Part shown: one piece after another, positions 15,798 through 34,154 of the stretch
Layout of the letters: the number at the start of each line of letters is the position of its first letter
Numbering within the stretch: position 1 is the first letter of the stretch
Assembly: GCA_964477275.1 (NCBI GenBank)
Contig: CAYZDV010000001.1
Span: forward strand, 1,002 to 65,001
DNA from: an uncultured Eubacteriales bacterium
Lineage (GTDB): Bacteria > Acidobacteriota > Aminicenantia > Aminicenantales > Aminicenantaceae
DNA length: 64,000 nucleotides
Reading direction: 5' to 3'
Notes under the pieces: model-generated
The model's database searches: none
What the model was told of the DNA's origin: nothing
Seen by the model: the letters and a program-made list of their open reading frames with translations, nothing else
Position numbers and translations under genes: made by a program

Positions 15798-16026
15798 TGA
15801 TCACCTGCTTCATCCCAGCTTCCTGGCACACTCTGATCCACTGGCGAGCATCCAGGGCCGTGGGATTGAAAAGTGTCGGGCCTTCCTCTCCTGTCCCCCA
15901 TTCCCGGTCTGTAAAAGTGTTGATCCCGAAATGGAGAAAAGCACTGAACTCCATCTCCTGCCAGGATATCTGCCGGGAGAAGGGGACACCCCATGCCACC
16001 CATCCTCTTTCTCCATTACCCAACAA
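15766..16026 (-). pseudogene. Truncated GH29 alpha-L-fucosidase fragment (N-terminal catalytic-domain remnant)
   Basis: FSAFLHFGINTFTDREWGTGEE...ARQWIRVCQEAGMKQVIITAKHQHHEG matches the GH29 N-terminal region. It runs antisense into the 3' end of the intact GH29 gene, so it cannot be full length. Confidence 0.5.
15983..16006 (+). repeat. GC-rich repeat family B, copy 1 (GGGGACACCCCATGCCACCCATCC)
   Basis: The same 22-24 nt core recurs at 24167-24188 and 51707-51730. It contains the GGGGTGTCCCC mini-hairpin. Confidence 0.55.
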
Positions 16027-16213: not shown

Positions 16214-16570
16214 ATGAATAATAGAACATTCTGTTTCCTTCTTTTTTTGCTCTGCGCCTCATCGGTTGCTTTTGCCGGTGAGGCAGCGGGAGAAAGCGCG
16301 GCTGGCGAGATCGAGATGCCGAGGCCAGAATATCCCCGGCCCCAGTTTGTCAGGCCGGAATGTGTGAATCCGGACGGGAAATGGACATTTGCCTTTGATT
16401 TGGGAAAATCCGGAAAAGAACGAGGCCTCAGCCGGAGCCGGCGAATTGAAAGAGAGATCCTCGTCCCCCTCTGTTATGAAGGCCAGCCCGATATCGTCGA
16501 TGAATACGGGGGGATCAAGTGGATCTTCAGCAAGCTGCAGATAACAAAACGGGGAGAAGAGGGGGGATGA
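16214..16570 (+). pseudogene. Short secreted ORF resembling the N-terminus of a glycoside hydrolase (possible truncated remnant)
   Basis: Signal peptide, then PEYPRPQFVRPE...W.F.FD, a pattern typical of GH2-like N-terminal sugar-binding domains. It ends after 118 aa, and its stop overlaps the start of the next gene. AAGGAG RBS before the ATG at 16214. Confidence 0.3.
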
Positions 16571-17601
16571 AAATGGGCATCGGATGGAAGCCGCCGGATG
16601 ACTGGAGAGTAATCACCACCATTGACGCCCATGCGGCCGGCGAGCCGCTGAGAGTGGTGACCGGAGGTCTGGAGGAAATCCCAGGAAAAACCATCCTGGA
16701 AAAAAGACGCTACGCCATGGAGCATCTGGATGATATTCGCACAGGGCTATTGTGGGAGCCCAGGGGCCATGCGGACATGTACGGCGCAATCATCACCGAA
16801 CCGGTCACTGCAGATGGTGACCTGGGCGTGCTGTTCATGCACAACGAGGGATTCAGCACTATGTGCGGTCACGGAGTCATCGCTTTGACCAAGGTCGCTC
16901 TGGATACAGGGCTGATTATCAAGCGGGGCGGTGAGCCGGTTTTGAACCTGGATACGCCGGCCGGAAGGGTCACGGTTAGGGCACACAGGGAAAAAAGCGA
17001 GGTCGAGGAGGTGTCCTTCCAGAACGTTCCTTCCTTTGTTTACAAGCGGAATCAGATGATCGAACTCGCAGAATTCGGGACGGTCCAGTACGACGTCGCT
17101 TTCGGAGGAGCATTCTATGCCTTCTGCCAGGCAGAAGAGCTTCAGCTCGGCCTTGAGCCCGGAGATTTCCAGAGCCTGCGCCATGCCGGACAGCGGATCA
17201 AGCAAGCGGTGATGGAGAGCCTGGACATCGAACATCCATACGAGAGAGACCTCGGGTTTCTTTATGGAACCATCTTTGTTGGGCCGGCCAGAGACCCATC
17301 CCACCACAGTCGCAATGTATGTGTTTTCGCCGATGGGGAGGTGGACCGGTCTCCCACCGGAACCGGGGTCAGCGCCCGCGCCGCCATCCACCATGACCAG
17401 GGAGAGCTGGACATCGGAAAGTCCATCACCATCGAGAGCATTCTGGACACCTGTTTTGAGGTGAAGATCGTCAAAGCCGTTGACTTTGGAGTCTACAGGG
17501 CAGTGATTCCAGAGGTCACAGGAAGCGCTCACATCACGGGCCAGAGCATCTTCTGCTTTGATCCCGCCGATCCCTTGAAAAAAGGCTTTATTTTCCGGTA
17601 G
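16567..17601 (+). CDS. Proline racemase family enzyme, predicted trans-3-hydroxy-L-proline dehydratase (Cys/Thr catalytic pair)
   Basis: HAAGEPLRVVTGG...FSTMCGHG keeps the first catalytic Cys. The second catalytic position reads DRSPTGTGVSA, with Thr instead of Cys, which is the signature of the dehydratase subfamily. Confidence 0.7.
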   Translation: MKMGIGWKPPDDWRVITTIDAHAAGEPLRVVTGGLEEIPGKTILEKRRYAMEHLDDIRTGLLWEPRGHADMYGAIITEPVTADGDLGVLFMHNEGFSTMCGHGVIALTKVALDTGLIIKRGGEPVLNLDTPAGRVTVRAHREKSEVEEVSFQNVPSFVYKRNQMIELAEFGTVQYDVAFGGAFYAFCQAEELQLGLEPGDFQSLRHAGQRIKQAVMESLDIEHPYERDLGFLYGTIFVGPARDPSHHSRNVCVFADGEVDRSPTGTGVSARAAIHHDQGELDIGKSITIESILDTCFEVKIVKAVDFGVYRAVIPEVTGSAHITGQSIFCFDPADPLKKGFIFR

Positions 17602-17631
17602 GCTCTGGATGATTGCCGTGGAACGGAAAAC

Positions 17632-22168
<4,537 letters not shown>

Positions 22169-22196: not shown

Positions 22197-23231
22197 TCAT
22201 TCCCCTCGACGCATTATCAGCCGGAAAACCAGGGACGGTGGAGCGAAATCTCCGAGAGAACCAGACCTCTTTTCTCCTGAAAGGTTCTCTGGGGAGTTTT
22301 CCTCAACAGGATGAAAAGGATAGTTCTTTCCAGCCAGGAAAATTTTTCCTCCGGCATCGACGATAATCGCGCCGTAGTCCGGATATTTTTCCAGGATTTT
22401 TTCCGGCTGTTCACAGACAAAAAGGGCTGTGGAGAGGGCATCAGAGAGCAGAGTTTCAGGACCGCAGACCGTGACACTCTGCTTGCCCTGGGCAGGATAT
22501 CCTGTCCTGGGGTCAAAGACATGGTGATAGCGAAGGCCGTCTTTGATGAAGTACCGCTGGTAATCGCCCGTGGTCGCAGCTCCCAGCCCGGAGATGGAGA
22601 GGATTCCCAGGTAGCCATTCTGGCGGGGATGTTTGATGCCCACCTTCCAGGGCTCAGCGTTCGGGTTTGTCCCCCAGCAGTAAAGGTCGCCGCCGGCGTT
22701 AATAAACCCTCTGGAGATTCCCATCTCAAGGAGAGCCCGGGAGGCCAGGTCGACGGCAAAACCTTTGGCGATGCCCCCCCAGTCGAGAGCCATTCCCGGT
22801 TGAAGGCGAAGGAGATCGTTTTCCTCCTTGATTTTTTCCATGCCCACCTTTCCGAGAAGCGACTGAATCCGTTGAGGAGAAGGGATGCAGTCAGACTTGG
22901 TGAGGAAACCCCATTCCCTGGTCAACGGAGCCACCGTGATATCGAAACAGCCCTCTGAATTGCGGTGGACCATCAGAGCTTTTCGGTAGAGGGTGATCAC
23001 CATCGGAGATGAGAGATCCTCGCTTCCAGGGGAGAAGCGGGATTCAATTTCCGAGAAAATGCTCTGGATTTTTTCCAGAGCGAGTTTAAAAGTCGAAGGT
23101 GAGCAGAAAACGCTGACCTCACAGAGCGTATCGAAAACGGCCAGGGTGGAGGTCTGCCACCTGTCTTTCAGCCGGCACTGGATATTCAAGAAAAGAAAAG
23201 CGAAAAACAGAAGGGAAAACTTTTTAGCCAA
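22197..23231 (-). CDS. apbE: FAD:protein FMN transferase (ApbE family), lipoprotein
   Basis: ...GGIAKGFAVD...ISGLGAATTGDYQRYF...HHVFDPRTGYPA are ApbE motifs. The start is inferred as TTG at 23231, giving a lipoprotein signal (...LFLNIQC). The start is uncertain. Confidence 0.7.
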   Translation of the reverse strand: MAKKFSLLFFAFLFLNIQCRLKDRWQTSTLAVFDTLCEVSVFCSPSTFKLALEKIQSIFSEIESRFSPGSEDLSSPMVITLYRKALMVHRNSEGCFDITVAPLTREWGFLTKSDCIPSPQRIQSLLGKVGMEKIKEENDLLRLQPGMALDWGGIAKGFAVDLASRALLEMGISRGFINAGGDLYCWGTNPNAEPWKVGIKHPRQNGYLGILSISGLGAATTGDYQRYFIKDGLRYHHVFDPRTGYPAQGKQSVTVCGPETLLSDALSTALFVCEQPEKILEKYPDYGAIIVDAGGKIFLAGKNYPFHPVEENSPENLSGEKRSGSLGDFAPPSLVFRLIMRRGE

Positions 23232-23957
23232 TGGATGTATCGACAGCAGGAGAGCCCTCAATTTGCAGCAGAAGGCGGTTGGGAGCGCAGATGATGCGCT
23301 CCCCGGCCAGAGAGGCAGGAGAGGAATAGCAGCAGACTTGATTCCGGCAGGAAGATTCCACAATCCAGGCTTTTCCGTCTTTCACCCTGAGCGTTACAGG
23401 CCCTCTCCGGGCAGCATAGGTGTGCGTGATGTTTTCTGCGAGGGGAATCCGGTCGACTCTCTGTCCATTCTTATACACAGAGAGATATTTTCCGCCCAGA
23501 TGACTTCTTTGTCTTTTTTTCAGGGAAGCAACCGTCAACCAGGCTGAGACCGCATGATTTTCGGTCATTTCTTTCCAGAGCGGGAGAAGTTTCGACGACC
23601 GGATATCCAGAATTTGACCATTCCTGACCAGAGTGAAGGAAGGACGTGCGCGGCCGCGCAGGGAAGAGGAGGAGATGGTCAGCGCTGCCCGAGAGGGCTC
23701 AGCTGCTGGCTTCCAGGCCTTTCGGACAAGGCTTCGCTTGACAGCTTCTTCCCTGGGATGCCTGTTGACAAAAGCGAAAGTCGTCTCCGGCAACGCCTGG
23801 TATTTCTGGATCCCTTCCAGAAGCTGTCCGATGAAAAGGTGTGGCTCGTCTCCCACGAGAAAGAGCTCGATATCGCTTGCGGATGTTCTTGAAGCCAGAA
23901 GGAGGGGAGTCAGCAGCGGCGTGGTCAGAACGGTCTTGAAAAAATGTCGTCTGTCCA
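23224..23957 (-). CDS. TAT-exported hypothetical protein (MDRRHFFKT twin-arginine signal), Cys-containing C-terminus
   Basis: RRHFFK TAT motif plus hydrophobic stretch. GGGAGG RBS 5 nt upstream of the ATG at 23957. No recognisable catalytic motif. Stop overlaps the apbE start. Confidence 0.4.
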
Positions 23958-24078
23958 TGGTCACCTCCCGGAATCTACGGATTCATCGACCCAAATTTTT
24001 ATTCAATCCGCAAAAAAAGTCAAATCAATTAAGGCATGTGTAAGCATCTTTTTTTCCGTGAAGGCTAATATTTTTTTT

Positions 24079-24188
24079 GGATGGGTCCTGTCATGGGGTG
24101 TCCCCCGTCCGTCCTCGCTCCACCCATCCCCCCGTGGGGAACCCCTTCCGCTGCGGGCGTTGCGGAGGACACCCCATGCCACCCATCC
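24079..24188 (+). repeat. GC-rich repeat family B, copy 2 (long form with 17/19 inverted arms and internal duplication of CCACCCATCC)
   Basis: Left arm TGTCATGGGGTGTCCCCCG. Right arm CGGAGGACACCCCATGCCA is its near-perfect reverse complement, about 45 nt away. Confidence 0.55.
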
Positions 24189-24347
24189 TATTTTAAAAGG
24201 AAATGGCCTTTACCCCAGAAAAAAAGATGCTTCCAAGGCATGTTTCCCATTTATCACGCCAAATCATTTTCCGCAAGAGAGGACCGAATCGGGCGGGTTT
24301 GCCCTTTTTGGTGTTGACATGGTTTTTTATATATTGTAAACCTGATT

Positions 24348-24433
24348 GGGTCTCTTCCATTTTGTGTGGGTCATTTAATGACGAAAATACACGCAAATGG
24401 CATCGCTCCCTTCAGGTTTTTAACGCCATTCCC
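24348..24433 (+). repeat. Conserved leader element family A, copy 2
   Basis: About 88% identical to 516-601. It lies about 30 bp downstream of TTGACA, and 200 bp upstream of the DoxX gene. Confidence 0.5.
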
Positions 24434-24634
24434 GTGTATTTACCCCCCACTATATGGAAAGGAATCATCTGATTTTTCAGGTCCGTTTCTCATGAGAGTC
24501 TGGAGCTGCGCACAGACGAACATCGAGCATGCAGCCTCATCGCCGCTTGTTTTCGTCTTTTTCCAAGCCCGCCGCATCATATATTGAGCATGGCGTATTT
24601 CTATTTACGGCTCGAATGATGCCGGGCATCTCAT

Positions 24635-25165
24635 TTGAAAGGTAGGGAAAAAATGCTGCAAAAAACAACAATGAATCTCGGTTATCCGATCGGAAACACG
24701 ACCGTTCAACTGACCGCACTTGTTGTCCTCAGGGTTCTCATCGGCTGGCATTTCCTCTATGAGGGCATTGTCAAAGTGATCAATCCCTACTGGTCTTCTG
24801 CCGGATATCTTCTGGAGACTAAGGGAATATTTTCTGGGATGGCCACATCGATTGTGGCCAATCCCGGCCTTCTCGGGGCTGTTGATTTCCTGAACAAGTG
24901 GGGGCTGGTCCTCATCGGTCTGGGGTTGATCGCCGGATTTTTGACGCGGACAGCCACCGTTGCCGGGATGGTTCTCCTCTTCCTTTACTATATCTTCCAC
25001 CCCCCGTTGCTCGGCTATACCTATGAGACTCCTGTGGAGGGCAGCTATCTCATCGTCAACAAAAATTTGATCGAGATGTGCGCCCTCTTCGTTTTGATTG
25101 TTTTTCCGACAGGCCGAATCATCGGCCTGGACAGGCTGATGGTCTTTGCCCGGAGGAAACCGTGA
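24635..25165 (+). CDS. DoxX family membrane protein
   Basis: Four predicted TM helices with the DoxX-like LRVLIGWHFLYEGIVK pattern. Confidence 0.65.
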   Translation: MKGREKMLQKTTMNLGYPIGNTTVQLTALVVLRVLIGWHFLYEGIVKVINPYWSSAGYLLETKGIFSGMATSIVANPGLLGAVDFLNKWGLVLIGLGLIAGFLTRTATVAGMVLLFLYYIFHPPLLGYTYETPVEGSYLIVNKNLIEMCALFVLIVFPTGRIIGLDRLMVFARRKP

Positions 25166-25199
25166 AAATCATGAAAATCTCTCGGAGGGAGGATATAAA

Positions 25200-26807
25200 A
25201 TGAGCCAGGAAAACCAAAAACATGACCCTGAACAGACGCCGGCTCAGATGGAGAGGACAGAAGGCTTTCAGCGCCGGGATATTCTCAAGGCGTTAGCCAC
25301 GCTTCCCGTGCTCGGACCCTTTTTCTACTTTCTGTTCAGGAAGAAGTGGCTGGATGACATGAGACGGAAAGAAATACTCGCCGAGCTGGGCATCAGCGGT
25401 AAGGCGCCGGAGGTGCTGCCCAGAACCACCCTGAAAAAAGCCGGAGAGCTCATCCGGCTGGGCATCATCGGTTTTGGCAGTCGGGGCGAAGCCCTGGCTC
25501 ATGCCGCTGGTTTTGCCCATCCGGACTGGATTGAAAGGAAGAAGAAAGACGCCAGGGAGAATAAGCTTGACAGGGAGCTCGAAACTTTTCTTGATCAGGA
25601 GGATTTGAATGTCGTCCTCACCGGCATCTGTGATGTCTTCGATGTCCGGGCAGAGCGGGGGATTGCCGCTTCCAAGAATGACATCAGGCCCGGTGGAGGC
25701 TCCGGATTGTTGAGCGGAGCCAGGCGCTACCGCCATTACCGGGAAATGCTGGAGAGCGGGGATGTCGATGCGGTGATCATCGCCACTCCCGACCACTGGC
25801 ATGCCCGGATGACCGTTGATGCGGCGATCTCCGGAAAACACGTCTACTGCGAGAAATGCATGACAAGAACGATCGAGGAGACCTTAGAAATGGTCGATGC
25901 CGTGAAGAACAGAGGAATTGTCTTCCAGCTGGGACATCAGGGCCGTCAGCAGGAAAGCTACATCAAAGCTCAACAGATAGTGGAGAAAAACATTCTGGGG
26001 AAAATTTCCCTGGTCGAAACGACCACCAATCGCAATTCACCCAACGGCGCCTGGGTCTATGATATCCATCCCGAAGGAAATCCCCAGACCATCGACTGGG
26101 GGCAGTTCCAGGGACCCGCGCCGCATCGGGTGCCATTCAGCCTGGAAAGATTTTTCCGCTGGCGATGCTGGTTTGACTACGGAACCGGGCTTTCCGGCGA
26201 CCTGCTCTCCCATGAGTATGACGCGGCCAATCAGATTCTGGAACTCGGGATTCCCAAATCCGCAGTCGCCTCGGGCGGAATCTATTTTTTCCAGGACGGC
26301 CGGGATGTGCCCGACGTCTTCCAGGCCGTGCTCGAGTATCCTGACCGGGACCTGACCCTGGTCTACAGTGCCACTCTGGCCAACGGCAGAGGCCGGGGAA
26401 AGGTGTTCATGGGACACGATGCCTCCATGGAAGTTGGCTACAGCCTGACGGTTACTGCGGACTGGGAGTCAACCCGTTACAGAGAGAAAATCCTGAACAA
26501 CATCATCAACACCGAGCTGCCGTTGTTCACCTACCGGCCGGGCCTGAAGGGGATTGACACCGTCACTTCTGCGACCGAAAGGTACTTTGCCACCAGAGGC
26601 CTGATGTATACCGAAAGGGGCGGACGGCCGGTCAACACCACCCATCTCCACGTCAAGGAATGGCTGGACTGCATCCGGAACGGCGGGCAACCGAGCTGCA
26701 ACATCGACCGCGGCTTCGAAGAGGCCATCACCTGCCACATGGCAACGCTTTCTTATTTAGAAGGCCGCAGGGTGGAATGGGACCCGGTGCGTAGAAAAGT
26801 GGTTTGA
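25200..26807 (+). CDS. Gfo/Idh/MocA family oxidoreductase, TAT-exported (glycoside 3-dehydrogenase-like)
   Basis: RRDILKALATLPVLG TAT signal. Rossmann motif LGIIGFGSRG. AIIIATPDHWHA and EKCM motifs. GGAGG RBS before the ATG at 25200. Confidence 0.8.
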   Translation: MSQENQKHDPEQTPAQMERTEGFQRRDILKALATLPVLGPFFYFLFRKKWLDDMRRKEILAELGISGKAPEVLPRTTLKKAGELIRLGIIGFGSRGEALAHAAGFAHPDWIERKKKDARENKLDRELETFLDQEDLNVVLTGICDVFDVRAERGIAASKNDIRPGGGSGLLSGARRYRHYREMLESGDVDAVIIATPDHWHARMTVDAAISGKHVYCEKCMTRTIEETLEMVDAVKNRGIVFQLGHQGRQQESYIKAQQIVEKNILGKISLVETTTNRNSPNGAWVYDIHPEGNPQTIDWGQFQGPAPHRVPFSLERFFRWRCWFDYGTGLSGDLLSHEYDAANQILELGIPKSAVASGGIYFFQDGRDVPDVFQAVLEYPDRDLTLVYSATLANGRGRGKVFMGHDASMEVGYSLTVTADWESTRYREKILNNIINTELPLFTYRPGLKGIDTVTSATERYFATRGLMYTERGGRPVNTTHLHVKEWLDCIRNGGQPSCNIDRGFEEAITCHMATLSYLEGRRVEWDPVRRKVV

Positions 26808-26875
26808 TTCAATGAAAACTCATCCCTTCATCGCGCAAGAAAAAAATCGGGTCATGGAGTCGTGAACAAAAAGAG

Positions 26876-28096
26876 GTGAACATGAATGTCAAATTCCGTC
26901 TCGGCCTGATGATGTTTTTGCAGTATGCTATCTGGGGGGCCTGGGCGCCCGTCCTGTCCGATTATCTGATCAACACCCTTGGCTTTTCTGGCTATCAGGT
27001 CGGTATCATCTACTTCCTGCTCCCGCTGGCGACGGTCATCGCGCCGTTCATTGGCGGACAGGTGGCTGACCGCTACTTTTCCTCCCAGAAGGTGGTGGGC
27101 TTCCTCCAGTTGAGCGGCGGAGCACTGCTCATCCTGATTTCCAATATCAGCGAATACCGAACCATGATGTGGCTGATGCTCCTTTACTGTTTACTTTATG
27201 CGCCGACACTGGCCCTGACCAATTCCATCGCTTTCATCAACCTCAAAAAGCCGGACAAGGAATTTGGCCTCATCAGGGTCTGGGGAACGATCGGATGGAT
27301 TGTGGCCGGCTATGCGCTAACGGCCTGGAGGGTGACCTCAAAGTCAATGCCGGCGATTGTCTTTCAGGGTGACACCCTGCTCCTGGCTGGCCTCTTCTCC
27401 ATCATCATGGGGATACAGGCGTTTGGCCTGCCTCACACGCCACCCAGAAAAGCAGCCGAGAAGCCCTGGGCTTTCCTGGAGGCGATCAGGATGATGAAAG
27501 ATAAGAATTTCGCCGTGTTCATCGTCATCGCCTTTGTGGTGGCCACGGAATTGATGTTCTATTACGTCCTGACCGCACCGTTTTTGACATCGGAGAAAAT
27601 CGGCGTTTCCAATACCATCCTGCCCTGGGTGATGACTATCGCCCAGGTGGCGGAGATTTTCGTCATGTGGTTTCTCCTGCCCTATTTCATCACCAAAATC
27701 GGCATCAGGAATATCCTGGTCATCGGTGTGCTGGCCTGGCCGGCCCGGTACATTATTTTCGCCATCGGCAAGCCAGTCTGGCTGGTTATTTCCTCCCTGT
27801 CGCTCCACGGCTTCTGTTTTGTGTTTTTCTTCGCCGCGGCTTTCATCTACGTGGACATGGTGGCACCGAGGGATATCCGGCATTCCGCCCAGAGCCTGAT
27901 CACCCTGGTCACCTACGGGGTGGGAAACGCCATCGGCAGCCTTTTTGCGGGCTGGGTTCATGATTATTTCACCACAGAAGCCGGAACAAACTGGACGGGC
28001 GTTTTCCTGGTGCCCTGCGTGTTGACCATTCTCTGCGCCTTCGCTTTTCTGCTGTTTTTCAGGCCGGAGAGAGCGTCTGTTCAAAGCCAGGAATAA
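26876..28096 (+). CDS. MFS transporter, nucleoside:H+ symporter (NupG/XapB) family
   Basis: 12 TM helices. N-terminus MMFLQYAIWGAWAPVLSDYL...GGQVADRYFSSQK aligns with NupG. Confidence 0.7.
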   Translation: MNMNVKFRLGLMMFLQYAIWGAWAPVLSDYLINTLGFSGYQVGIIYFLLPLATVIAPFIGGQVADRYFSSQKVVGFLQLSGGALLILISNISEYRTMMWLMLLYCLLYAPTLALTNSIAFINLKKPDKEFGLIRVWGTIGWIVAGYALTAWRVTSKSMPAIVFQGDTLLLAGLFSIIMGIQAFGLPHTPPRKAAEKPWAFLEAIRMMKDKNFAVFIVIAFVVATELMFYYVLTAPFLTSEKIGVSNTILPWVMTIAQVAEIFVMWFLLPYFITKIGIRNILVIGVLAWPARYIIFAIGKPVWLVISSLSLHGFCFVFFFAAAFIYVDMVAPRDIRHSAQSLITLVTYGVGNAIGSLFAGWVHDYFTTEAGTNWTGVFLVPCVLTILCAFAFLLFFRPERASVQSQE

Positions 28097-28164
28097 AAAT
28101 CGGTCAAACCCGGGAAAATAACCGGGCCGGACAGAATCGAAAAGGCTCAAAAAGGAGAGTTCGA

Positions 28165-29415
28165 ATGATAAAAAAGAGGCTGGGTGTGGGGATCATCGGC
28201 GCGGGATTTATCAGCAGGTTCCATATCCGTTCCTGGGTCGGCGTCCGTGATGCGGATATCCTGGGTGTCTATTCCCGGACAGAGGAGAGAGCCAGAGAGG
28301 CGGCAGCCCTGGCCAGGGAGTTGCAGGTCGGCGAGGCCAGGGTCTATAAATCCGTCACCGACATGGTGGCCGACCCGTCCATCGATGCCCTGTGGCTCTG
28401 TGCGCCGAATTTCTGCCGGATTGAAAATATGGAGGAGATCGTCGATGCTCTCGAGGCCGGAAAGGGAGAACTCATCGGAATAACCTGTGAGAAGCCCCTC
28501 GGCCGGAATGTCCGGGAAGCGCGGAAAATGCTGGAGCTGGCCCGGAAAGCAAAGCTGCTCGACGGTTACCTGGAGAACCAGGTTTTTGCGCCGGCCGTAG
28601 TCAGAGGCAAGGAGATTGTCTGGGCCCGGGGAGCGGCGATCTCCGGAAGGCCCTACCTGGCCCGGGCGGCCGAGGAACACAGCGGGCCGCACATGCCCTG
28701 GTTCTGGGAAGGGGAGCTCCAGGGAGGAGGTGTGCTCAACGACATGATGTGCCATTCGGTGGAGGAGGCCCGGTTCATGCTCACTCCTCCCGGCGCGGCA
28801 AGGGAAACCCTCACTCCTCTCAACATCACGGCTTATGCCTCCTGCTTGAAATGGCAGGACCCTCATTACGCCAGGATTCTCGCCGAAAACTCCGGAGGCC
28901 GGACAGACTACCTCCGAAGGCCGGCTGAAGATTTTGCCCGCTCCCTGGTCGAATACAGGGATGAGAAAGGAAACATCCTGGTGGTGGAGACCACCACATC
29001 CTGGTGCTACGTGGGAGCCGGGCTGCGCCTGACCATGGAGCTGCTCGGCCCGGAATACTCGCTGGCCATCAACACGCTGGATTCCGGACTCAAGGTTTTC
29101 TTCAGCCGGAATGTGAAGGGCAAAGCCGGAGAGGACCTGGTGGAAAAGCAGAATGCGGAGATGGGTCTGATGCCCGTGGTCAGCGATGAAAGCCATGAAT
29201 ACGGGTATATCGCCGAAAACCGCCACATGGTTCAATCCTTCCTGGCCGGAAAGCGGCCCGAGGAAAACTTCAGCGATGGCTTGAACGTGACCGAGCTTCT
29301 CATGACGGCCTACATGAGCGCTGAGCAGGAGCGAACAGTGGAATTCCCGCCCGCTGGCCTGGAATCCTATGTGCCGGCAGTGGCCCGCGGGGAGTGGAAC
29401 CCGAGGAAAAAATAA
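28165..29415 (+). CDS. Gfo/Idh/MocA family oxidoreductase (cytoplasmic)
   Basis: GVGIIGAGFISRFH Rossmann motif, EKPLG, and a C-terminal Gfo/Idh/MocA alpha/beta domain. Confidence 0.8.
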   Translation: MIKKRLGVGIIGAGFISRFHIRSWVGVRDADILGVYSRTEERAREAAALARELQVGEARVYKSVTDMVADPSIDALWLCAPNFCRIENMEEIVDALEAGKGELIGITCEKPLGRNVREARKMLELARKAKLLDGYLENQVFAPAVVRGKEIVWARGAAISGRPYLARAAEEHSGPHMPWFWEGELQGGGVLNDMMCHSVEEARFMLTPPGAARETLTPLNITAYASCLKWQDPHYARILAENSGGRTDYLRRPAEDFARSLVEYRDEKGNILVVETTTSWCYVGAGLRLTMELLGPEYSLAINTLDSGLKVFFSRNVKGKAGEDLVEKQNAEMGLMPVVSDESHEYGYIAENRHMVQSFLAGKRPEENFSDGLNVTELLMTAYMSAEQERTVEFPPAGLESYVPAVARGEWNPRKK

Positions 29416-29433
29416 TGAAAATGGAATTCGGGA

Positions 29434-30915
29434 GTGACCATGAAAAACCTGATTTTTTTGTTTCTGGCCTGTTCGCCTTTTGTCTGGATGTCCTGCGGGA
29501 GGCAAGTCCAGACTGAAAGCGCTGAACCCAAGACTCTGGAATCGGTGAAGGATGAGGTAGCCCGCACCGATTACGAAGAGGTGAGGATCAAAAAGATTCC
29601 CATCGCCCTCCAGTGCTGGACGTTCCGGAAATTCTCCTTCTATGAAACCCTGGAGAAAGCCGGGGAACTCGGCATCCATTATCTCCAGCCCTATCCCGGT
29701 CAGGTCCTCAGCAAGGAAAATCCTGACCTGAAGTTCGACCACAACCTCGGCGATGATATTCTTCAGGAGGTGAGAGGAAAGCTCGAGGAGTCCGGCCTTT
29801 CGCTGGTCAGCTACGGAGTGGTCGGTTTTGAAAACAGTGAAGAAAGCATGCGAAAGGTTTTCGATTTCGCCCGAAAAATGGGCATCAGGACCATTATCAC
29901 CGAACCCCAGTTCGACGATTTTTCGCTCATTGAACAGATGGTCAAGGAGTACAGCATCGCCATCGCCATCCACAACCATCCCCAGCCTTCCAAGTATTAC
30001 CATCCGGAGACCGTCCTGCGCTATGTTGAAGGAAAAGACGGGCGGATCGGAGCCTGTGCGGACAACGGTCACTGGATGCGCGCCGGAATCAAACCTGTGG
30101 AAGGCTTGCGGCTGCTCGAAGGCCGCATCAGAGATGTCCATCTCAAGGACCGGAACCAGTTCGGGACAGAGGGCGCTTATGACGTACCTTTCGGGCAGGG
30201 AGCGGCCAGCATCCATGCCATTCTGGCCGAGCTGACCCTCCAGGATTACAGGGGATATCTTGCCATCGAGCATGAAAACCCCGATGACGCCGACAACCCT
30301 TCAGCGCCAGTCAAAAAGGGAATCGAATACATCCAGAGCATTACTTATTATGAGGGTTACGAGGAGATATTGAAGTGGAGCCACGGCCGATACATCAAAC
30401 ATGGTTGGAATCACTACGGCCCTGGCTATTTCGAGCTGGATGAGAAGACGGGTGTCCTGAAGGGACAGGGAGGCATGGGCCTTCTCTGGTACAGCGCAAG
30501 AAAGTTCAGGGATTTCATTCTGAAGCTGGACTTCCGGTGTGCTGATGAACACACCAACTCCGGAATTTTTCTCCGGGTTCCCGACGTCCCCACAAGCGAC
30601 GACTATATCTACCATTCCTTCGAGATTCAGATCAACGACAGCGGAGAGGGCATCCACGGGACAGGCGCCGTCTACGATGCGGAGGGGCCGGCCATAAACG
30701 CCTCGAAAAAACCGGGCGAGTGGAACCATTTCAAAATCACCTTCAAAGGGAAGCGCATCACCGTGGAGTTGAATGACCAGGTCGTGGTCGACTGGGAGGC
30801 TGAACCCCGGGGCAAGGTCAGGGATTTTCCCAGGGAAGGATATATCGGTCTTCAAAACCATGACAGCCGTTCTCCGATTTACTTCCGGAACATTTTCGTG
30901 AAAGAGCTGAAATAG
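29434..30915 (+). CDS. Lipoprotein fusion: sugar-phosphate isomerase/epimerase (xylose-isomerase-like TIM barrel) + DUF1080 (3-keto-glycoside hydrolase/lyase-like) domain
   Basis: N-terminal lipoprotein signal. The TIM barrel has IAIHNH and HLKD metal-site motifs. The C-terminal 190 aa carry the DUF1080 jelly-roll pattern (FRDFILKLDFR...NSGIFLR...FEIQI...GYIGLQNH). Confidence 0.7.
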   Translation: MTMKNLIFLFLACSPFVWMSCGRQVQTESAEPKTLESVKDEVARTDYEEVRIKKIPIALQCWTFRKFSFYETLEKAGELGIHYLQPYPGQVLSKENPDLKFDHNLGDDILQEVRGKLEESGLSLVSYGVVGFENSEESMRKVFDFARKMGIRTIITEPQFDDFSLIEQMVKEYSIAIAIHNHPQPSKYYHPETVLRYVEGKDGRIGACADNGHWMRAGIKPVEGLRLLEGRIRDVHLKDRNQFGTEGAYDVPFGQGAASIHAILAELTLQDYRGYLAIEHENPDDADNPSAPVKKGIEYIQSITYYEGYEEILKWSHGRYIKHGWNHYGPGYFELDEKTGVLKGQGGMGLLWYSARKFRDFILKLDFRCADEHTNSGIFLRVPDVPTSDDYIYHSFEIQINDSGEGIHGTGAVYDAEGPAINASKKPGEWNHFKITFKGKRITVELNDQVVVDWEAEPRGKVRDFPREGYIGLQNHDSRSPIYFRNIFVKELK

Positions 30916-30938: not shown

Positions 30939-31895
30939 TTGAAGACTCAAGTAGAGAGCTTCTCCCTGAAAATAACAAGGCGTGAGTTTTTTTCCCGGAT
31001 TGCATGCAGTGGGGTGTCCGGCTGCCTCCTCGGTTCAGGCTGTTTTGATTATTATCTCAGTCAAGGCAAGAGGGAGCTCACGCTGGATAAGGAATCGCAG
31101 ACGCGCCGGATTTTTTCGAAGATCATGGCCAGGGCGAAGAGGGAGGCGTGGCCCGGCCTGCCGATCGGTGAATGCATGGGAAAAATTGCCATTTCTCTAC
31201 TCGGGACCAGGTACGTCGCCGGAACCTTAGAGGGAGAAGGGCCGGAGGTGTGCCGCGTGGACCTTTCCGGCATGGATTGCGTCACCTTTTATGAGAATGT
31301 GCTCTGTCTGGCCCGAATTTTAAAGAAAGGACAGACTGCTTTTGACGATTTCATCGCTGAGCTGACCTTTGTCCGCTACCGGGGAGGCTGCCTCATGGAC
31401 TACACTTCCCGCCTCCATTACACCGCGGATTGGATTTTCGATAATGAAAAAAAGAGGGTAGTGGAGAACATCACCCCCCATAGCGGCGGAGAGAGATTTC
31501 CTGTCCGGGTCTTTTTCATGTCCAATAATTCCCGTCTCTATCCCGCCTTGAGGAGCAACCCTCAGTTCATCCCTGTCATAGCCAGGCAGGAAGAGGACAT
31601 CAGCAAGCGCAGTCACTGGATCATTCCTCGAGAGAACATTGAAAAGGTTCAGACGTATTTGCAGACCGGAGACATCGTGGCCTTCGCCGCGAGCCGTCAG
31701 GGCCTGGATTATGGCCATGCCGGACTGGTCTATCGCGGCCAGAGAGGAAAAGTCGGGCTGCTCCACGCCTCTTCAAAGAAGATGAGGGTTATTCTCGACG
31801 GAGAACTTGTCCGATGGATCCAGTCGGTGGAAACATGCCCCGGCGTGACGGTTGCCAGACCGGTTGAGGTCAGGACGGTGAGGGAATGGCGTTAA
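30939..31895 (+). CDS. Hypothetical exported protein, possible Cys/His hydrolase (DUF1460-like)
   Basis: N-terminal TRREFFSRIACSGVSGC signal. Conserved C (DCVTFYENV) and H (DYGHAGLV) residues. Assignment is tentative. Confidence 0.3.
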   Translation: MKTQVESFSLKITRREFFSRIACSGVSGCLLGSGCFDYYLSQGKRELTLDKESQTRRIFSKIMARAKREAWPGLPIGECMGKIAISLLGTRYVAGTLEGEGPEVCRVDLSGMDCVTFYENVLCLARILKKGQTAFDDFIAELTFVRYRGGCLMDYTSRLHYTADWIFDNEKKRVVENITPHSGGERFPVRVFFMSNNSRLYPALRSNPQFIPVIARQEEDISKRSHWIIPRENIEKVQTYLQTGDIVAFAASRQGLDYGHAGLVYRGQRGKVGLLHASSKKMRVILDGELVRWIQSVETCPGVTVARPVEVRTVREWR

Positions 31896-32764: not shown

Positions 32765-33544
32765 ATGGCCAGAGAAACAGAAGTCAAGCCCATTTCATCC
32801 ATTCTTGGGGCTCTGGAAGCCTACGACGGCTGCGAGGTCGACGTGCGGCTCACCAGGGATAGAGTTCCGGTTCTTCATCATGATTCCCGGAATGCCGGCA
32901 GGAGATTGATGGAGACAGATTTTGCAAGCCTGAGGAATGTCCCCACTCTCAGGGAGCTCGTTTCGCATCCTCAGATGGTCCGTCTCGTCAACGAGAAAGG
33001 CAAGACTCTCTGGATAGAAGCCAAGGAAGATACCACATTCCGGTGGAGAAAGGATCCCGGTCTGTGCAAGGAGATGGCTCAGAGACTCATCGAACTACTC
33101 GGAGAATCAGAGATTCGCATGGAGAATCTGCGCATCATATCCTTCTGCGCGGAGATTTTGAAACACATCCAGGGGATTCGGACCCTGCGGATCGTCCCTT
33201 ATCTTTTCAGCCCTGCTGATGACTTCGTCCCTCATTATAATCACCGGACATTCCTGGACCTGGTGCTTCCCCTCCAGCGCCACATCCTGAAGGCCAGGGC
33301 CATGGGAATCAGAGGGCTTCTTTTCTCCAAGCTCTATCTGCGGGGGTTTTTCTCGTTCTTTCAGCCCTCCTGGGAAAAGATCAAATCCTGGGCCAGAGAT
33401 GATTTCATCCTGGGCACAGAGGCCCAGACTTTTGAGGAGGAAAAGGCGTTCAAGGATTTCGTTGTGATCACGGATTACCGGGGAGAACGGAAAGGAGGCA
33501 GGGGAGAGGGAGACGGTCCTTTGATCTGCCACAGGGGGCTCTGA
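32765..33544 (+). CDS. Glycerophosphodiester phosphodiesterase-like (GDPD superfamily) protein
   Basis: EVDVRLTRDRVPVLHHD is the GDPD E-x-D...HD motif. Confidence 0.55.
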   Translation: MARETEVKPISSILGALEAYDGCEVDVRLTRDRVPVLHHDSRNAGRRLMETDFASLRNVPTLRELVSHPQMVRLVNEKGKTLWIEAKEDTTFRWRKDPGLCKEMAQRLIELLGESEIRMENLRIISFCAEILKHIQGIRTLRIVPYLFSPADDFVPHYNHRTFLDLVLPLQRHILKARAMGIRGLLFSKLYLRGFFSFFQPSWEKIKSWARDDFILGTEAQTFEEEKAFKDFVVITDYRGERKGGRGEGDGPLICHRGL

Positions 33545-33617
33545 CTTCTATCGCTTCCCTTGAAAAAAGGGGTCTTGAAAGAAGATTATAGTCGACATGT
33601 TGAGCTGCGGCGGTGTC

Positions 33618-34154
33618 ATGGCTGAACCAAAACCTTTCCGTCCGGTCAAGCTCATCTGCGGCATCATCTCCTCTGAAGAACAATGGTTTTCCCGGGCCGA
33701 GGAACACCTGGCACGCCTCTACGGCCCCGTGGACAGAAAAAGCCGCCTCTTTGCTTTCACCTTCACGGATTATTACGAAAATCAGATGGGGAAAAATTTG
33801 AAGAGAAGCTTTCTCAGCTTCGCTCCTCTCATTGCTCCGGAGAGGTTGAGTGAAATCAAGCTTCAGACAAATGAACTCGAAAAAAAGCTGCAGAAAGACT
33901 CGGGTTCCGCCCTGAGAGTGGTGAACCTTGATCCCGGTTATCTGACCTCATCGGCTCTGGTCATGGCCACGGCCAAGGATTTTGCCCACCGTATTCCTCT
34001 TCAGCACGGGATTTATGCCCATCTGGAACTGCTGTTCGGCAAAAATGAAGTGAGGATGTTGGGATGGACCTACCCCGATTACAGGACTGAGGGCGGCCAG
34101 AAATTCTTCCTCGAAGTCCGGAGACTCTATCTTTCCCAGATTATGGTTCGTTAA
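33618..34154 (+). CDS. Conserved hypothetical protein (DUF4416-like)
   Basis: VKLICGII and NLDPGYL motifs. No catalytic assignment. Start ambiguous (33597 or 33618). Confidence 0.3.
   Translation: MAEPKPFRPVKLICGIISSEEQWFSRAEEHLARLYGPVDRKSRLFAFTFTDYYENQMGKNLKRSFLSFAPLIAPERLSEIKLQTNELEKKLQKDSGSALRVVNLDPGYLTSSALVMATAKDFAHRIPLQHGIYAHLELLFGKNEVRMLGWTYPDYRTEGGQKFFLEVRRLYLSQIMVR

Follow-up and report, generated by a model that had tools for sequence, protein, structure and literature searches.

A conserved five-gene module predicted to cleave glycosides non-hydrolytically across the inner membrane of uncultured bacteria

Contig CAYZDV010000001.1 of an uncultured Aminicenantaceae bacterium carries, within the 64,000-nucleotide stretch analysed here (the window; positions are counted from its first letter), five genes arranged head-to-tail on the plus strand between positions 24635 and 30915, with intergenic gaps of 23-74 bp (Table 1). 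They encode, in order, a small DoxX-family membrane protein, a Gfo/Idh/MocA oxidoreductase with a twin-arginine translocation (Tat) signal, a major facilitator superfamily (MFS) permease of the NupG/YegT (NHS) family, a second, cytoplasmic Gfo/Idh/MocA oxidoreductase, and an exported protein in which a TIM barrel is fused to a DUF1080 domain, an order that an earlier note on this DNA had read from the sequence alone and that Pfam searches and the open reading frames (ORFs) bear out in full. On balance, we favour reading this module as a catabolic unit for the non-hydrolytic cleavage of glycosides, laid out across the inner membrane, in which a glycoside would be oxidised, its aglycone eliminated, the product hydrated, and the resulting keto sugar reduced. 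This reading draws on the domain families, export signals, and catalytic signatures of the five proteins and on a gene order that is conserved between genomes.

Proposed pathway

The pathway would begin at the periplasmic face, where the Tat-exported Gfo/Idh/MocA protein (the Tat enzyme), together with DoxX, would oxidise a ring hydroxyl, by analogy the one at C3, on a glycoside's non-reducing sugar. The exported fusion would then eliminate the aglycone and hydrate the ensuing 2-hydroxy-3-keto-glycal to a free 3-keto sugar, with the TIM barrel acting as a lyase and DUF1080 as a lyase/hydratase. The NupG-family permease would import the 3-keto sugar, and the cytoplasmic Gfo/Idh/MocA protein would reduce it to an ordinary sugar for central metabolism. 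We infer the oxidised position, the reaction directions, and the cargo of the transporter, as well as the substrate, which is probably an oligosaccharide or a small glycoside.

The reference for this scheme is the 3-keto-glycoside pathway encoded by BT2156-BT2159 of Bacteroides thetaiotaomicron and AL1-AL4 of Alistipes (Liu et al. 2021, PMC8121099; Nasseri et al. 2024, bioRxiv 10.1101/2024.03.25.586180). In that pathway, a Tat-exported Gfo/Idh/MocA enzyme with tightly bound nicotinamide adenine dinucleotide (NAD) oxidises the C3 hydroxyl of the glycoside, a periplasmic TIM barrel (for beta anomers) or a DUF1080 protein (for alpha anomers) eliminates the aglycone, and a DUF1080 protein hydrates the glycal to 3-keto-glucose, which is largely in the furanose form (PMC8121099; 10.1101/2024.03.25.586180). 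For the third and fourth steps, there is a precedent in Caulobacter, for which a transporter and a reductase have been proposed to handle 3-keto-galactose (Price et al.).

Predicted keto-glycoside chemistry of the exported and cytoplasmic enzymes

The Tat motif F-Q-R-R-D-I-L-K is conserved in every orthologue of the Tat enzyme. After it come a hydrophobic helix and a basic cluster, in which no A-x-A cleavage site is evident; in the AlphaFold (AF2) model, residues 25-63 form one continuous helix, a combination suggesting that the signal may stay on as an uncleaved membrane anchor, with the enzyme facing the periplasm. Among the orthologues, the catalytic motifs EK and DxxxH are conserved, as is GxGxxG. 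The best NCBIfam family is the BT_2158_fam glycoside 3-dehydrogenase (NF058561; 127 bits, E = 7e-37), which scores above IolG (77 bits), and the best PDB sequence matches are 8tdf and 8tdh, the glucoside-3-dehydrogenase AL3 of Alistipes. All fold neighbours of the model are sugar-ring dehydrogenases (DgpA, levoglucosan dehydrogenase, AL3, and RgNanOx), at scores of ~1e-18 throughout, which cannot separate one sugar dehydrogenase from another.

In the fusion, Pfam identifies AP_endonuc_2, a xylose-isomerase-like TIM barrel, and 3keto-disac_hyd/DUF1080 (133.7 bits). Foldseek neighbours of its AF2 model (predicted local distance difference test, pLDDT, 86.9; predicted template modelling score, pTM, 0.84) include 3p6l, 4kw2, AtHYD (a 2-hydroxy-3-keto-glucal hydratase), AL2, BT2, and the 3-keto-glycoside eliminase/hydratase 8rr2. 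The DUF1080 domain aligns to AL2 (8v31), BT2 (8tda), BT2157 (3osd), and the 3-keto-glycoside eliminase/hydratase (8rr2/9fbe), and it shares with AL2 the motifs NSG, E-x-Q, Y-D, and Q-x-H, which are invariant in 30 homologues and whose positions are listed as metal or active site by Nasseri et al. (2024, bioRxiv 10.1101/2024.03.25.586180). The TIM domain is ~30-35% identical (Foldseek) to 3p6l (BDI_1903) and 4kw2 (BDI_1873) of Parabacteroides distasonis, structural-genomics proteins of unknown function. Its invariant residues H178-x-H180, D208, W212, H234, and E277 match H178, H180, D211, W214, H237, and E272 of AL1 by order and similar spacing alone.

The earlier note had placed these enzyme families in the known toolkit for glycoside 3-oxidation followed by 3-keto-glycoside cleavage, and this proposal gains support from BT_2158_fam and AL3 as the best relatives of the Tat enzyme, from the AL2/BT2 signature kept in DUF1080, and from proven 3-keto-glycoside eliminases/hydratases among the fold neighbours of both fusion domains. 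The same note had described the fusion as a lipoprotein. The N-terminal signal peptide contains Cys at positions 11 and 19; among the homologues, the signal is kept and the Cys is not conserved, so that export is a trait of the family and lipidation is specific to this genome. The protein is thus lipoprotein-like in this genome, where its Cys residues are consistent with a lipobox.

The cytoplasmic Gfo/Idh/MocA enzyme has no N-terminal signal, its Rossmann motif begins at residue 7, and its EKP and DxxxH motifs are invariant among orthologues, which are 63-83% identical across phyla. It belongs to a tight family, with 187 representatives at 50% identity found below 1e-30 among 1.8 billion sequences searched, and it matched no curated NCBIfam equivalog. 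In the PDB, it matches 6jw6 best (81 bits); 6jw6 and 6nor, which we take to be the aminoglycoside 3''-dehydrogenases KanD2 and GenD2, are not used as evidence here. Of 55 orthologues, 28 have Ser and 14 have Asp at the beta2-loop position, and in view of this mixture an argument that the enzyme is an NADPH-dependent reductase was dropped.

The module is conserved across phyla as a unit of two parts

To place the module in a wider context, one genome per species was scanned with the permease alignment as query, followed by tblastn with the window proteins. The scan yielded 80 loci, labelled Aminicenantes, Gemmatimonadota, KSB1, Latescibacterota, Neomarinimicrobiota, Caldithrix, and others, which cover at least five phylum-level lineages. 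The cytoplasmic Gfo gene lies directly 3' of the permease gene in 60 of 68 loci with enough sequence, and a DUF1080 gene, with or without a TIM domain, lies 3' in 49 of 55 (36 fused and 13 DUF1080-only, the latter mostly in Gemmatimonadota). In eight of the DUF1080-only loci, a separate TIM barrel with a Tat signal or lipobox is encoded, usually upstream. DoxX and the Tat-Gfo gene are found 5' of the permease in 28 of 61 loci. Across phyla, identities reach 63-81% for the permease, 63-82% for the cytoplasmic Gfo, 58-86% for the Tat-Gfo, and 53-74% for DoxX, and the closed Aminicenantes genome CP070825.1 contains the same five genes between unrelated flanks. Since the gene order recurs across phyla at such high identity, the arrangement is far beyond chance.

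The module behaves as a unit of two parts, namely a core of three genes, for the permease, the cytoplasmic Gfo, and the exported lyase/hydratase, and an add-on pair of DoxX and Tat-Gfo, which also occurs without the permease trio in the metagenome scan described below. The two features that had seemed to stand out in the earlier note, the fusion of the two domains and the pairing with a NupG-family permease, are both real, and neither is a peculiarity of this genome: among more than 1,393 homologues of the fusion, the best 120 listed are all two-domain proteins (62-74% identity), and the pairing is kept across phyla.

Variants of the arrangement occur as well. The fusion gene directly follows the permease gene, with no cytoplasmic Gfo gene between them, in L012, L013, L015, L016, L029, and L040, and L021 and L044 lack the Tat-Gfo gene and have DoxX next to the permease on its upstream side. 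A Gemmatimonadota variant (e.g., L038, L045, L054, L055, and L073) encodes ApbE, DoxX, Tat-Gfo, permease, and cytoplasmic Gfo on one strand; a stand-alone DUF1080 gene closes the series in most such loci, and a separate Tat/lipobox TIM barrel gene lies just upstream of ApbE in L045, L054, L055, and L073. In nine Aminicenantes loci (including L025-L027, L033, and L052), a convergent gene for an FGGY-family sugar kinase, which might phosphorylate the sugar product, is found immediately downstream of the fusion, ~4 kb downstream of the permease. The same loci are flanked by dnaA-dnaN-ApbE on one side and by an rnf operon on the other, which places the module near dnaA-dnaN and possibly near the replication origin.

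Several observations weigh against the proposed pathway. No component of the module reaches the score of a curated NCBIfam equivalog: the Tat enzyme, at 127 bits, stays far below the BT_2158_fam cut-off of 750 bits. In addition, its alignment to AL3 is confined to residues 191-379, and the match of the TIM domain to the AL1/BT1 lyases (8tcs/8tcd) is marginal (E ~0.07) and places it in a different subfamily. About half of the loci have no Tat dehydrogenase nearby, so that the oxidising step must there be encoded elsewhere or supplied otherwise; the three-gene form occurs alone in closed genomes such as OY970261.1. In the Bacteroides and Alistipes pathway, the fourth, cytosolic Gfo is needed in vivo and dispensable in vitro, and no transporter is described (10.1101/2024.03.25.586180), so that the roles of the permease and of the cytoplasmic Gfo are ones that we infer. 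Across these subfamilies, the roles are predicted from sequence and genomic context. Moreover, Pfam and neighbourhood clustering reveal no regulator inside the module or among its recurrent neighbours, unlike the situation with BT2160/AL5.

DoxX, ApbE, and a possible respiratory route for the Tat enzyme

With the Tat enzyme as anchor, a further scan covered metagenomes and compared close orthologues (at least 44% identity) with distant Tat-Gfo homologues. DoxX lies immediately upstream on the same strand in all 23 close loci and in none of 40 distant ones; DoxX and the Tat enzyme are an obligate pair. DoxX itself carries the conserved motif LR..IGWH..YEG..K and scores 17.9 bits against the equivalog for DoxD, the TQO large subunit, for which the cut-off is 300.

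The Tat enzyme further contains a loop, DTVTSAT, that fits the ApbE motif D-x-x-[S/T]-G-A-[S/T] at six of seven positions, with Ser replacing Gly. This motif needs no more than seven residues and is functional in surface loops, and ~50% flavinylation remains when its G is changed to A (PMC12052999). A loop of this type is present in 117 of 120 homologues of the Tat enzyme, and the strict motif occurs in 20 of 26 close and 0 of 47 distant metagenome loci. In the 37,253 amino acids of the window ORFs, the pattern D..[ST][GS]A[ST] is matched once, by this loop, which the AF2 model renders as a conserved coil of low confidence.

A gene for the flavin transferase ApbE, whose hydrophobic N-terminal segment ends in Cys, is divergent from the module in the window. 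Clustering of the neighbours of the 80 loci identifies ApbE as the most recurrent extra gene: it lies within 6.5 kb in 16 of 22 five-gene genome loci, and in the metagenomes, it is part of the locus in 6 of 29 close but 1 of 51 distant cases (Fisher p = 0.008). In Gemmatimonadota, the ApbE gene is co-directional and just upstream of DoxX, and its product is only ~33% identical to the ApbE of the window. The NusG_II gene of the window (Table 1) lies upstream of ApbE on the minus strand and forms with it a two-gene accessory unit divergent from DoxX; in other Aminicenantes loci, a NusG_II gene is located at the end of an rnf operon.

As a variant of the same pathway, which we consider possible but rather unlikely, DoxX and the Tat enzyme would constitute a membrane-bound, quinone-reducing sugar dehydrogenase, in which ApbE would attach flavin mononucleotide (FMN) to the Thr of the DxxTSAT loop and electrons would pass from tightly bound NAD(H) through the covalent FMN to a quinone site in DoxX. 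The strict partnership with DoxX, the restriction of the strict motif to close orthologues, a motif that departs from the consensus at the Gly position alone, and the recurrence of ApbE beside the module are all consistent with such a route, and Nasseri et al. (2024, bioRxiv 10.1101/2024.03.25.586180) left open what re-oxidises the NAD bound by the periplasmic enzyme in vivo. An external electron acceptor is needed if the keto sugar enters the cell instead of being reduced in the periplasm. With a respiratory FMN route, the Tat enzyme would have no need to regenerate its cofactor through reduction of the keto sugar, the mechanism proposed for AL3/BT2158.

Several findings speak against this respiratory variant. 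The Gly of the motif is Ser, and some orthologues of the Tat enzyme carry T-T-P-T or S-P-T, losing the Ala, yet still have ApbE adjacent. ApbE also adjoins 11 three-gene Aminicenantes loci that have no Tat enzyme and have rnf genes nearby, and there the Rnf complex is probably the likelier ApbE client; we therefore do not treat ApbE adjacency as simple proof of flavinylation. Outside the DoxD/DoxA system, DoxX is not known to act as a quinone reductase. Gfo/Idh/MocA proteins are not known ApbE targets: the surveys of flavinylation (Meheust et al. 2021, PMC8238504; 2024 follow-up) name neither them nor DoxX, and Pfam finds in the Tat enzyme only Gfo/Idh/MocA domains and none of the known ApbE target domains FMN_bind, NqrB/RnfD, DUF2271, and DUF3570. 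The DTVTSAT loop could instead be a substrate lid or a dimer contact.

In its boldest form, which we hold to be doubtful, DoxX and the anchored Tat-Gfo would be a previously unrecognised periplasmic respiratory sugar dehydrogenase, with electrons passing from a prosthetic nicotinamide to the ApbE-attached FMN, to DoxX, and to quinone, and the NHS permease would be the first dedicated keto-sugar importer. If true, the respiratory reading would explain the in vivo re-oxidation of Tat-exported glycoside 3-dehydrogenases, add Gfo/Idh/MocA proteins to the ApbE targets, and give DoxX a defined role. Our literature search found no paper that pairs DoxX with a Gfo protein.

The permease lacks base-contact and proton-site residues of nucleoside transporters

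The permease matches Pfam Nuc_H_symport (PF03825) over its full length with 341.5 bits, YegT (207 bits) and NupG (169 bits) are the solved structures nearest to it, and its top 120 homologues are 74-84% identical to it. Against the TIGR00889 nucleoside-permease model, it reaches 281.4 bits, below the cut-off of 446. We mapped the NupG residues described by Wang et al. through an HMMER alignment and then across 69 permease orthologues. The ribose-contact triad R136/T140/E264 of NupG corresponds to R134, T138, and E260, which are invariant or nearly so, and Q261 corresponds to an invariant Q257. In contrast to these ribose contacts, the base-contact residues are replaced, with M/E/Q at position 227 for Q225, Y230 for N228, and H311 for Y318. 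The Asp of the GxxxD motif in transmembrane helix (TM) 10 (D323 in NupG, D315 in YegT), which has been described as highly conserved in the NHS family and as a protonation switch, is replaced by V316 in the sequence G312-F-C-F/Y-V316, and this Val is invariant in the 69 sequences. As judged from these alignments, the permease is by fold a member of the NHS superfamily, but it fails on the traits linked to recognising nucleosides and to coupling with protons, and the label "nucleoside permease" is probably wrong for this subfamily.

Because the predicted TIM-barrel and DUF1080 cleaving enzymes are exported, the permease would act downstream of cleavage, and the six loci in which the permease and fusion genes are directly adjacent tie the transporter to the product of the exported enzyme. 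Its linkage is tightest to the exported fusion and is close to the cytoplasmic Gfo as well. Speculatively, the retained ribose site would suit the furanose form of a keto sugar.

The earlier note had raised the possibility of a nucleoside-like substrate. In such a scheme, the permease would import a nucleoside or a similar ribofuranoside, a ring hydroxyl would be oxidised, and the base or aglycone would be eliminated, amounting to oxidative N-deglycosylation. Formation of a 3'-keto group followed by elimination at C1' would be chemically plausible in principle, and the strong Nuc_H_symport match, the proximity to YegT and NupG, and the four retained residues R134, T138, E260, and Q257 all lean in this direction. 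However, the score below the TIGR00889 cut-off, the altered base contacts, and the invariant Val in place of the GxxxD Asp point away from nucleosides, an exported lyase/hydratase has no access to a compound that was oxidised in the cytoplasm, and the ~80 neighbourhoods show no recurrent nucleoside phosphorylase, hydrolase, deaminase, or kinase. With the exported cleavage enzymes placing the transporter downstream, we regard a nucleoside-like substrate as improbable, and the suggestion of the note is not supported. Our literature search found no paper that combines a nucleoside, a Gfo protein, DUF1080, and a TIM barrel.

Inositol, levoglucosan, and cell-wall alternatives

A further alternative is that the module serves the catabolism of a cyclitol of the inositol type or of an anhydro sugar such as levoglucosan, with a TIM barrel resembling IolE, IolI, or LgdB. 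IolI, IolE, and levoglucosan dehydrogenase do appear among the Foldseek neighbours, and NCBIfam returns weak matches to IolG (77.5 and 63.2 bits), levoglucosan dehydrogenase (57.8 and 58.8 bits), and IolE (39 bits), but these scores lie 5- to 10-fold under the respective cut-offs of 355, 650, and 290. The pathways for inositol and levoglucosan are cytoplasmic and make no use of DUF1080, whereas the TIM/DUF1080 protein and one dehydrogenase are exported here. No iolB-, iolC-, iolD-, or iolJ-type genes are present within ~10 kb or in the conserved neighbourhoods. By these profile scores and flanking genes, the check for inositol genes and inositol-type enzymes, which the earlier note had named among the ways to overturn its reading, came out negative, and this alternative is very improbable.

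A role in recycling muropeptides or amino sugars of the cell wall can be set aside as next to negligible: although an AmiA-like/DUF1460 gene lies co-directionally in an apparent operon position 23 bp downstream of the fusion, this adjacency is found only in the genome's own contigs (L001 and L003, with identical proteins), the gene is 5-7 kb away in L007, L009, and L019 and absent elsewhere, and no MurQ, NagZ, AnmK, or AmpG-type genes recur nearby. As its adjacency is not conserved, the AmiA-like gene was rejected as a member of the module.

Comparison with known systems and implications

The module and the BT2156-59/AL1-4 clusters draw on four common superfamilies that are placed alike (TIM barrel and DUF1080 protein exported, one Gfo exported by Tat and one cytosolic), and for the cytoplasmic enzyme, the likeness to BT2159/AL4 is one of superfamily and compartment. 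The differences are several. In the Bacteroides and Alistipes clusters, the DUF1080 protein is a separate lipoprotein; here the TIM barrel and DUF1080 are fused in one polypeptide, and the TIM domain is of the 3p6l/4kw2-type subfamily. The Tat enzyme forms a subfamily of its own, in which the anchor is probably left uncleaved, DoxX is an obligate partner, and the DxxTSAT loop is present; a dedicated NHS-family permease is encoded in the middle of the cluster, and a SusR-like/DUF6377 regulator is absent. Whereas the published clusters belong to gut Bacteroidales, the module is found in environmental phyla such as Aminicenantes, Gemmatimonadota, and KSB1.

The Agrobacterium and Caulobacter routes (LacABC, ThuAB, O-glycoside beta-eliminase, AtHYD, and DUF1080 eliminase/hydratase; PMC10628242; PMC9007349; PDB 8ro4, 8rr2) follow the same logic of periplasmic oxidation, elimination, and hydration, with the oxidase linked to the respiratory chain, and both domains of the fusion have fold neighbours there. 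Their oxidase, however, is a flavin adenine dinucleotide (FAD)-type flavoprotein with cytochrome c rather than a Gfo/Idh/MocA protein, the enzymes are separate, and no NHS-type permease is reported. Glucose-fructose oxidoreductase (GFOR) of Zymomonas mobilis, like the Tat enzyme, is a Tat-exported Gfo/Idh/MocA protein, presumably folded around a tightly bound nicotinamide cofactor, but it is soluble, its signal is cleaved, its cofactor is recycled with a second sugar, it has no DoxX partner, and it is distant from the Tat enzyme (41 bits). With the ApbE-flavinylated extracytosolic proteins (NqrC/B, RnfG/D, NosR, PplA, DUF2271, and DUF3570; PMC8238504), the Tat enzyme has in common the extracytosolic site, a seven-residue loop of the form D-x-x-[S/T]-x-A-[S/T], and an ApbE gene that is often nearby; it differs in that the carrier would be a Gfo/Idh/MocA protein instead of an FMN_bind-type domain, Ser takes the place of Gly, and the site is a prediction from sequence. 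The permease shares the 12-TM MFS fold, the family profile, the ribose contacts, and Q261 with the NHS family (E. coli NupG, XapB, and YegT; PDB 7DL9, 8ZOJ), from which it is set apart, beyond the residue changes and profile score given above, by partners that are sugar oxidoreductases rather than nucleoside enzymes.

What is new here is not the predicted chemistry, which is of a known kind, but the fused lyase/hydratase, the TIM subfamily, an NHS permease without the Asp, a probably anchored Tat enzyme with DoxX and an ApbE-type loop, the lack of a regulator, and the occurrence in environmental, mostly uncultured phyla. The oxidise-eliminate-hydrate route was worked out only between 2021 and 2024, in gut Bacteroidales and Agrobacterium, and what we read as a distinct, highly conserved version of it (identities of 55-85% between phyla) is widespread among uncultured lineages of sediment, soil, and the subsurface. 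The carbohydrate use of those lineages is usually inferred from glycoside-hydrolase counts alone, so that the module would be missed. The module also offers candidates for two steps left open in published work, namely the import and reduction of the keto sugar, by the NHS-type permease and the cytoplasmic Gfo, and the re-oxidation of the periplasmic bound cofactor, by DoxX and possibly via covalent FMN.

Gene coordinates, flanking genes, and repeats

The start codons of the Tat enzyme, the permease, and the fusion were fixed from identical database proteins, and the true start of DoxX is probably the ATG at 24653 or 24671. A promoter and terminator scan found no convincing terminator between the genes of the module, and Rfam and tRNA scans of the whole window returned no matches.

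Table 1 Features of the module and its immediate surroundings in the window.
Feature	Position	Strand	Evidence
DoxX-family small integral membrane protein	24635..25165	+	Pfam DoxX, 24.5 bits against a cut-off of 23.6 (marginal)
Tat-signal Gfo/Idh/MocA protein, predicted glycoside 3-dehydrogenase, 535 aa	25200..26807 (ORF 25146-26807)	+	Pfam GFO_IDH_MocA
Twin-arginine motif R-R-D-I-L-K	25272..25289	+	Translation; within F-Q-R-R-D-I-L-K
D-T-V-T-S-A-T loop, ApbE-motif-like	26556..26576	+	Translation
NupG/YegT-family (NHS) MFS permease, divergent subfamily, 404 aa	26882..28096 (ORF 26876-28096)	+	Pfam Nuc_H_symport
Signal-less cytoplasmic Gfo/Idh/MocA oxidoreductase, putative keto-sugar reductase, 416 aa	28165..29415	+	Pfam GFO_IDH_MocA
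Exported TIM-barrel and DUF1080 fusion, putative 3-keto-glycoside lyase/hydratase, 491 aa	29440..30915 (ORF 29434-30915)	+	Pfam AP_endonuc_2 and 3keto-disac_hyd
TIM-barrel domain of the fusion (residues 75-302)	~29602-30339	+	Pfam
DUF1080 domain of the fusion (residues 324-490)	~30403-30903	+	Pfam
ApbE flavin transferase, divergent from the module	22197..23363	-	Pfam ApbE, 221 bits; ORF start uncertain
Tat-signal NusG_II-domain protein	23224..23964	-	Pfam NusG_II, 62.6 bits; RRHFFK motif
AmiA-like/DUF1460 gene, downstream of the fusion	30939..31895	+	Pfam AmiA-like, 132.6 bits

Just upstream of the ApbE pair, a LacZ-type GH2 beta-galactosidase of 1130 aa is encoded at 18776-22168 (+). A GH2 gene beside the module recurs only in L019 and L030, in the latter directly after the permease and cytoplasmic Gfo genes and apparently frameshifted, and a link to beta-galactosides as a general feature was rejected on this ground. 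The unrelated neighbours at 16519-18819 (+) and 32765-34154 (+) comprise a proline racemase-family protein, a radical SAM/SPASM maturase-like protein, a weak GDPD-like ORF, and DUF4416; Pfam identifies aminotransferases, DUF1015, a 2-hydroxyacid dehydrogenase, and an M20 peptidase among the further flanking genes. An ORF of 708 aa at 28147-30273 (-), antisense to the cytoplasmic Gfo and the fusion, has no support as a gene.

The 688-bp intergenic region at 23965-24652, upstream of DoxX, contains two hairpin-type inverted repeats, with arms at 24089-24107 and 24163-24181 for the first and at 24385-24401 and 24425-24441 for the second. They look like elements of the REP (repetitive extragenic palindrome) or MITE (miniature inverted-repeat transposable element) type. 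Homologous copies are intergenic in L046 (two copies), L007, L009, L018, L024, and L027, and one half-site of the repeat lies at 15984-15995 of the window.

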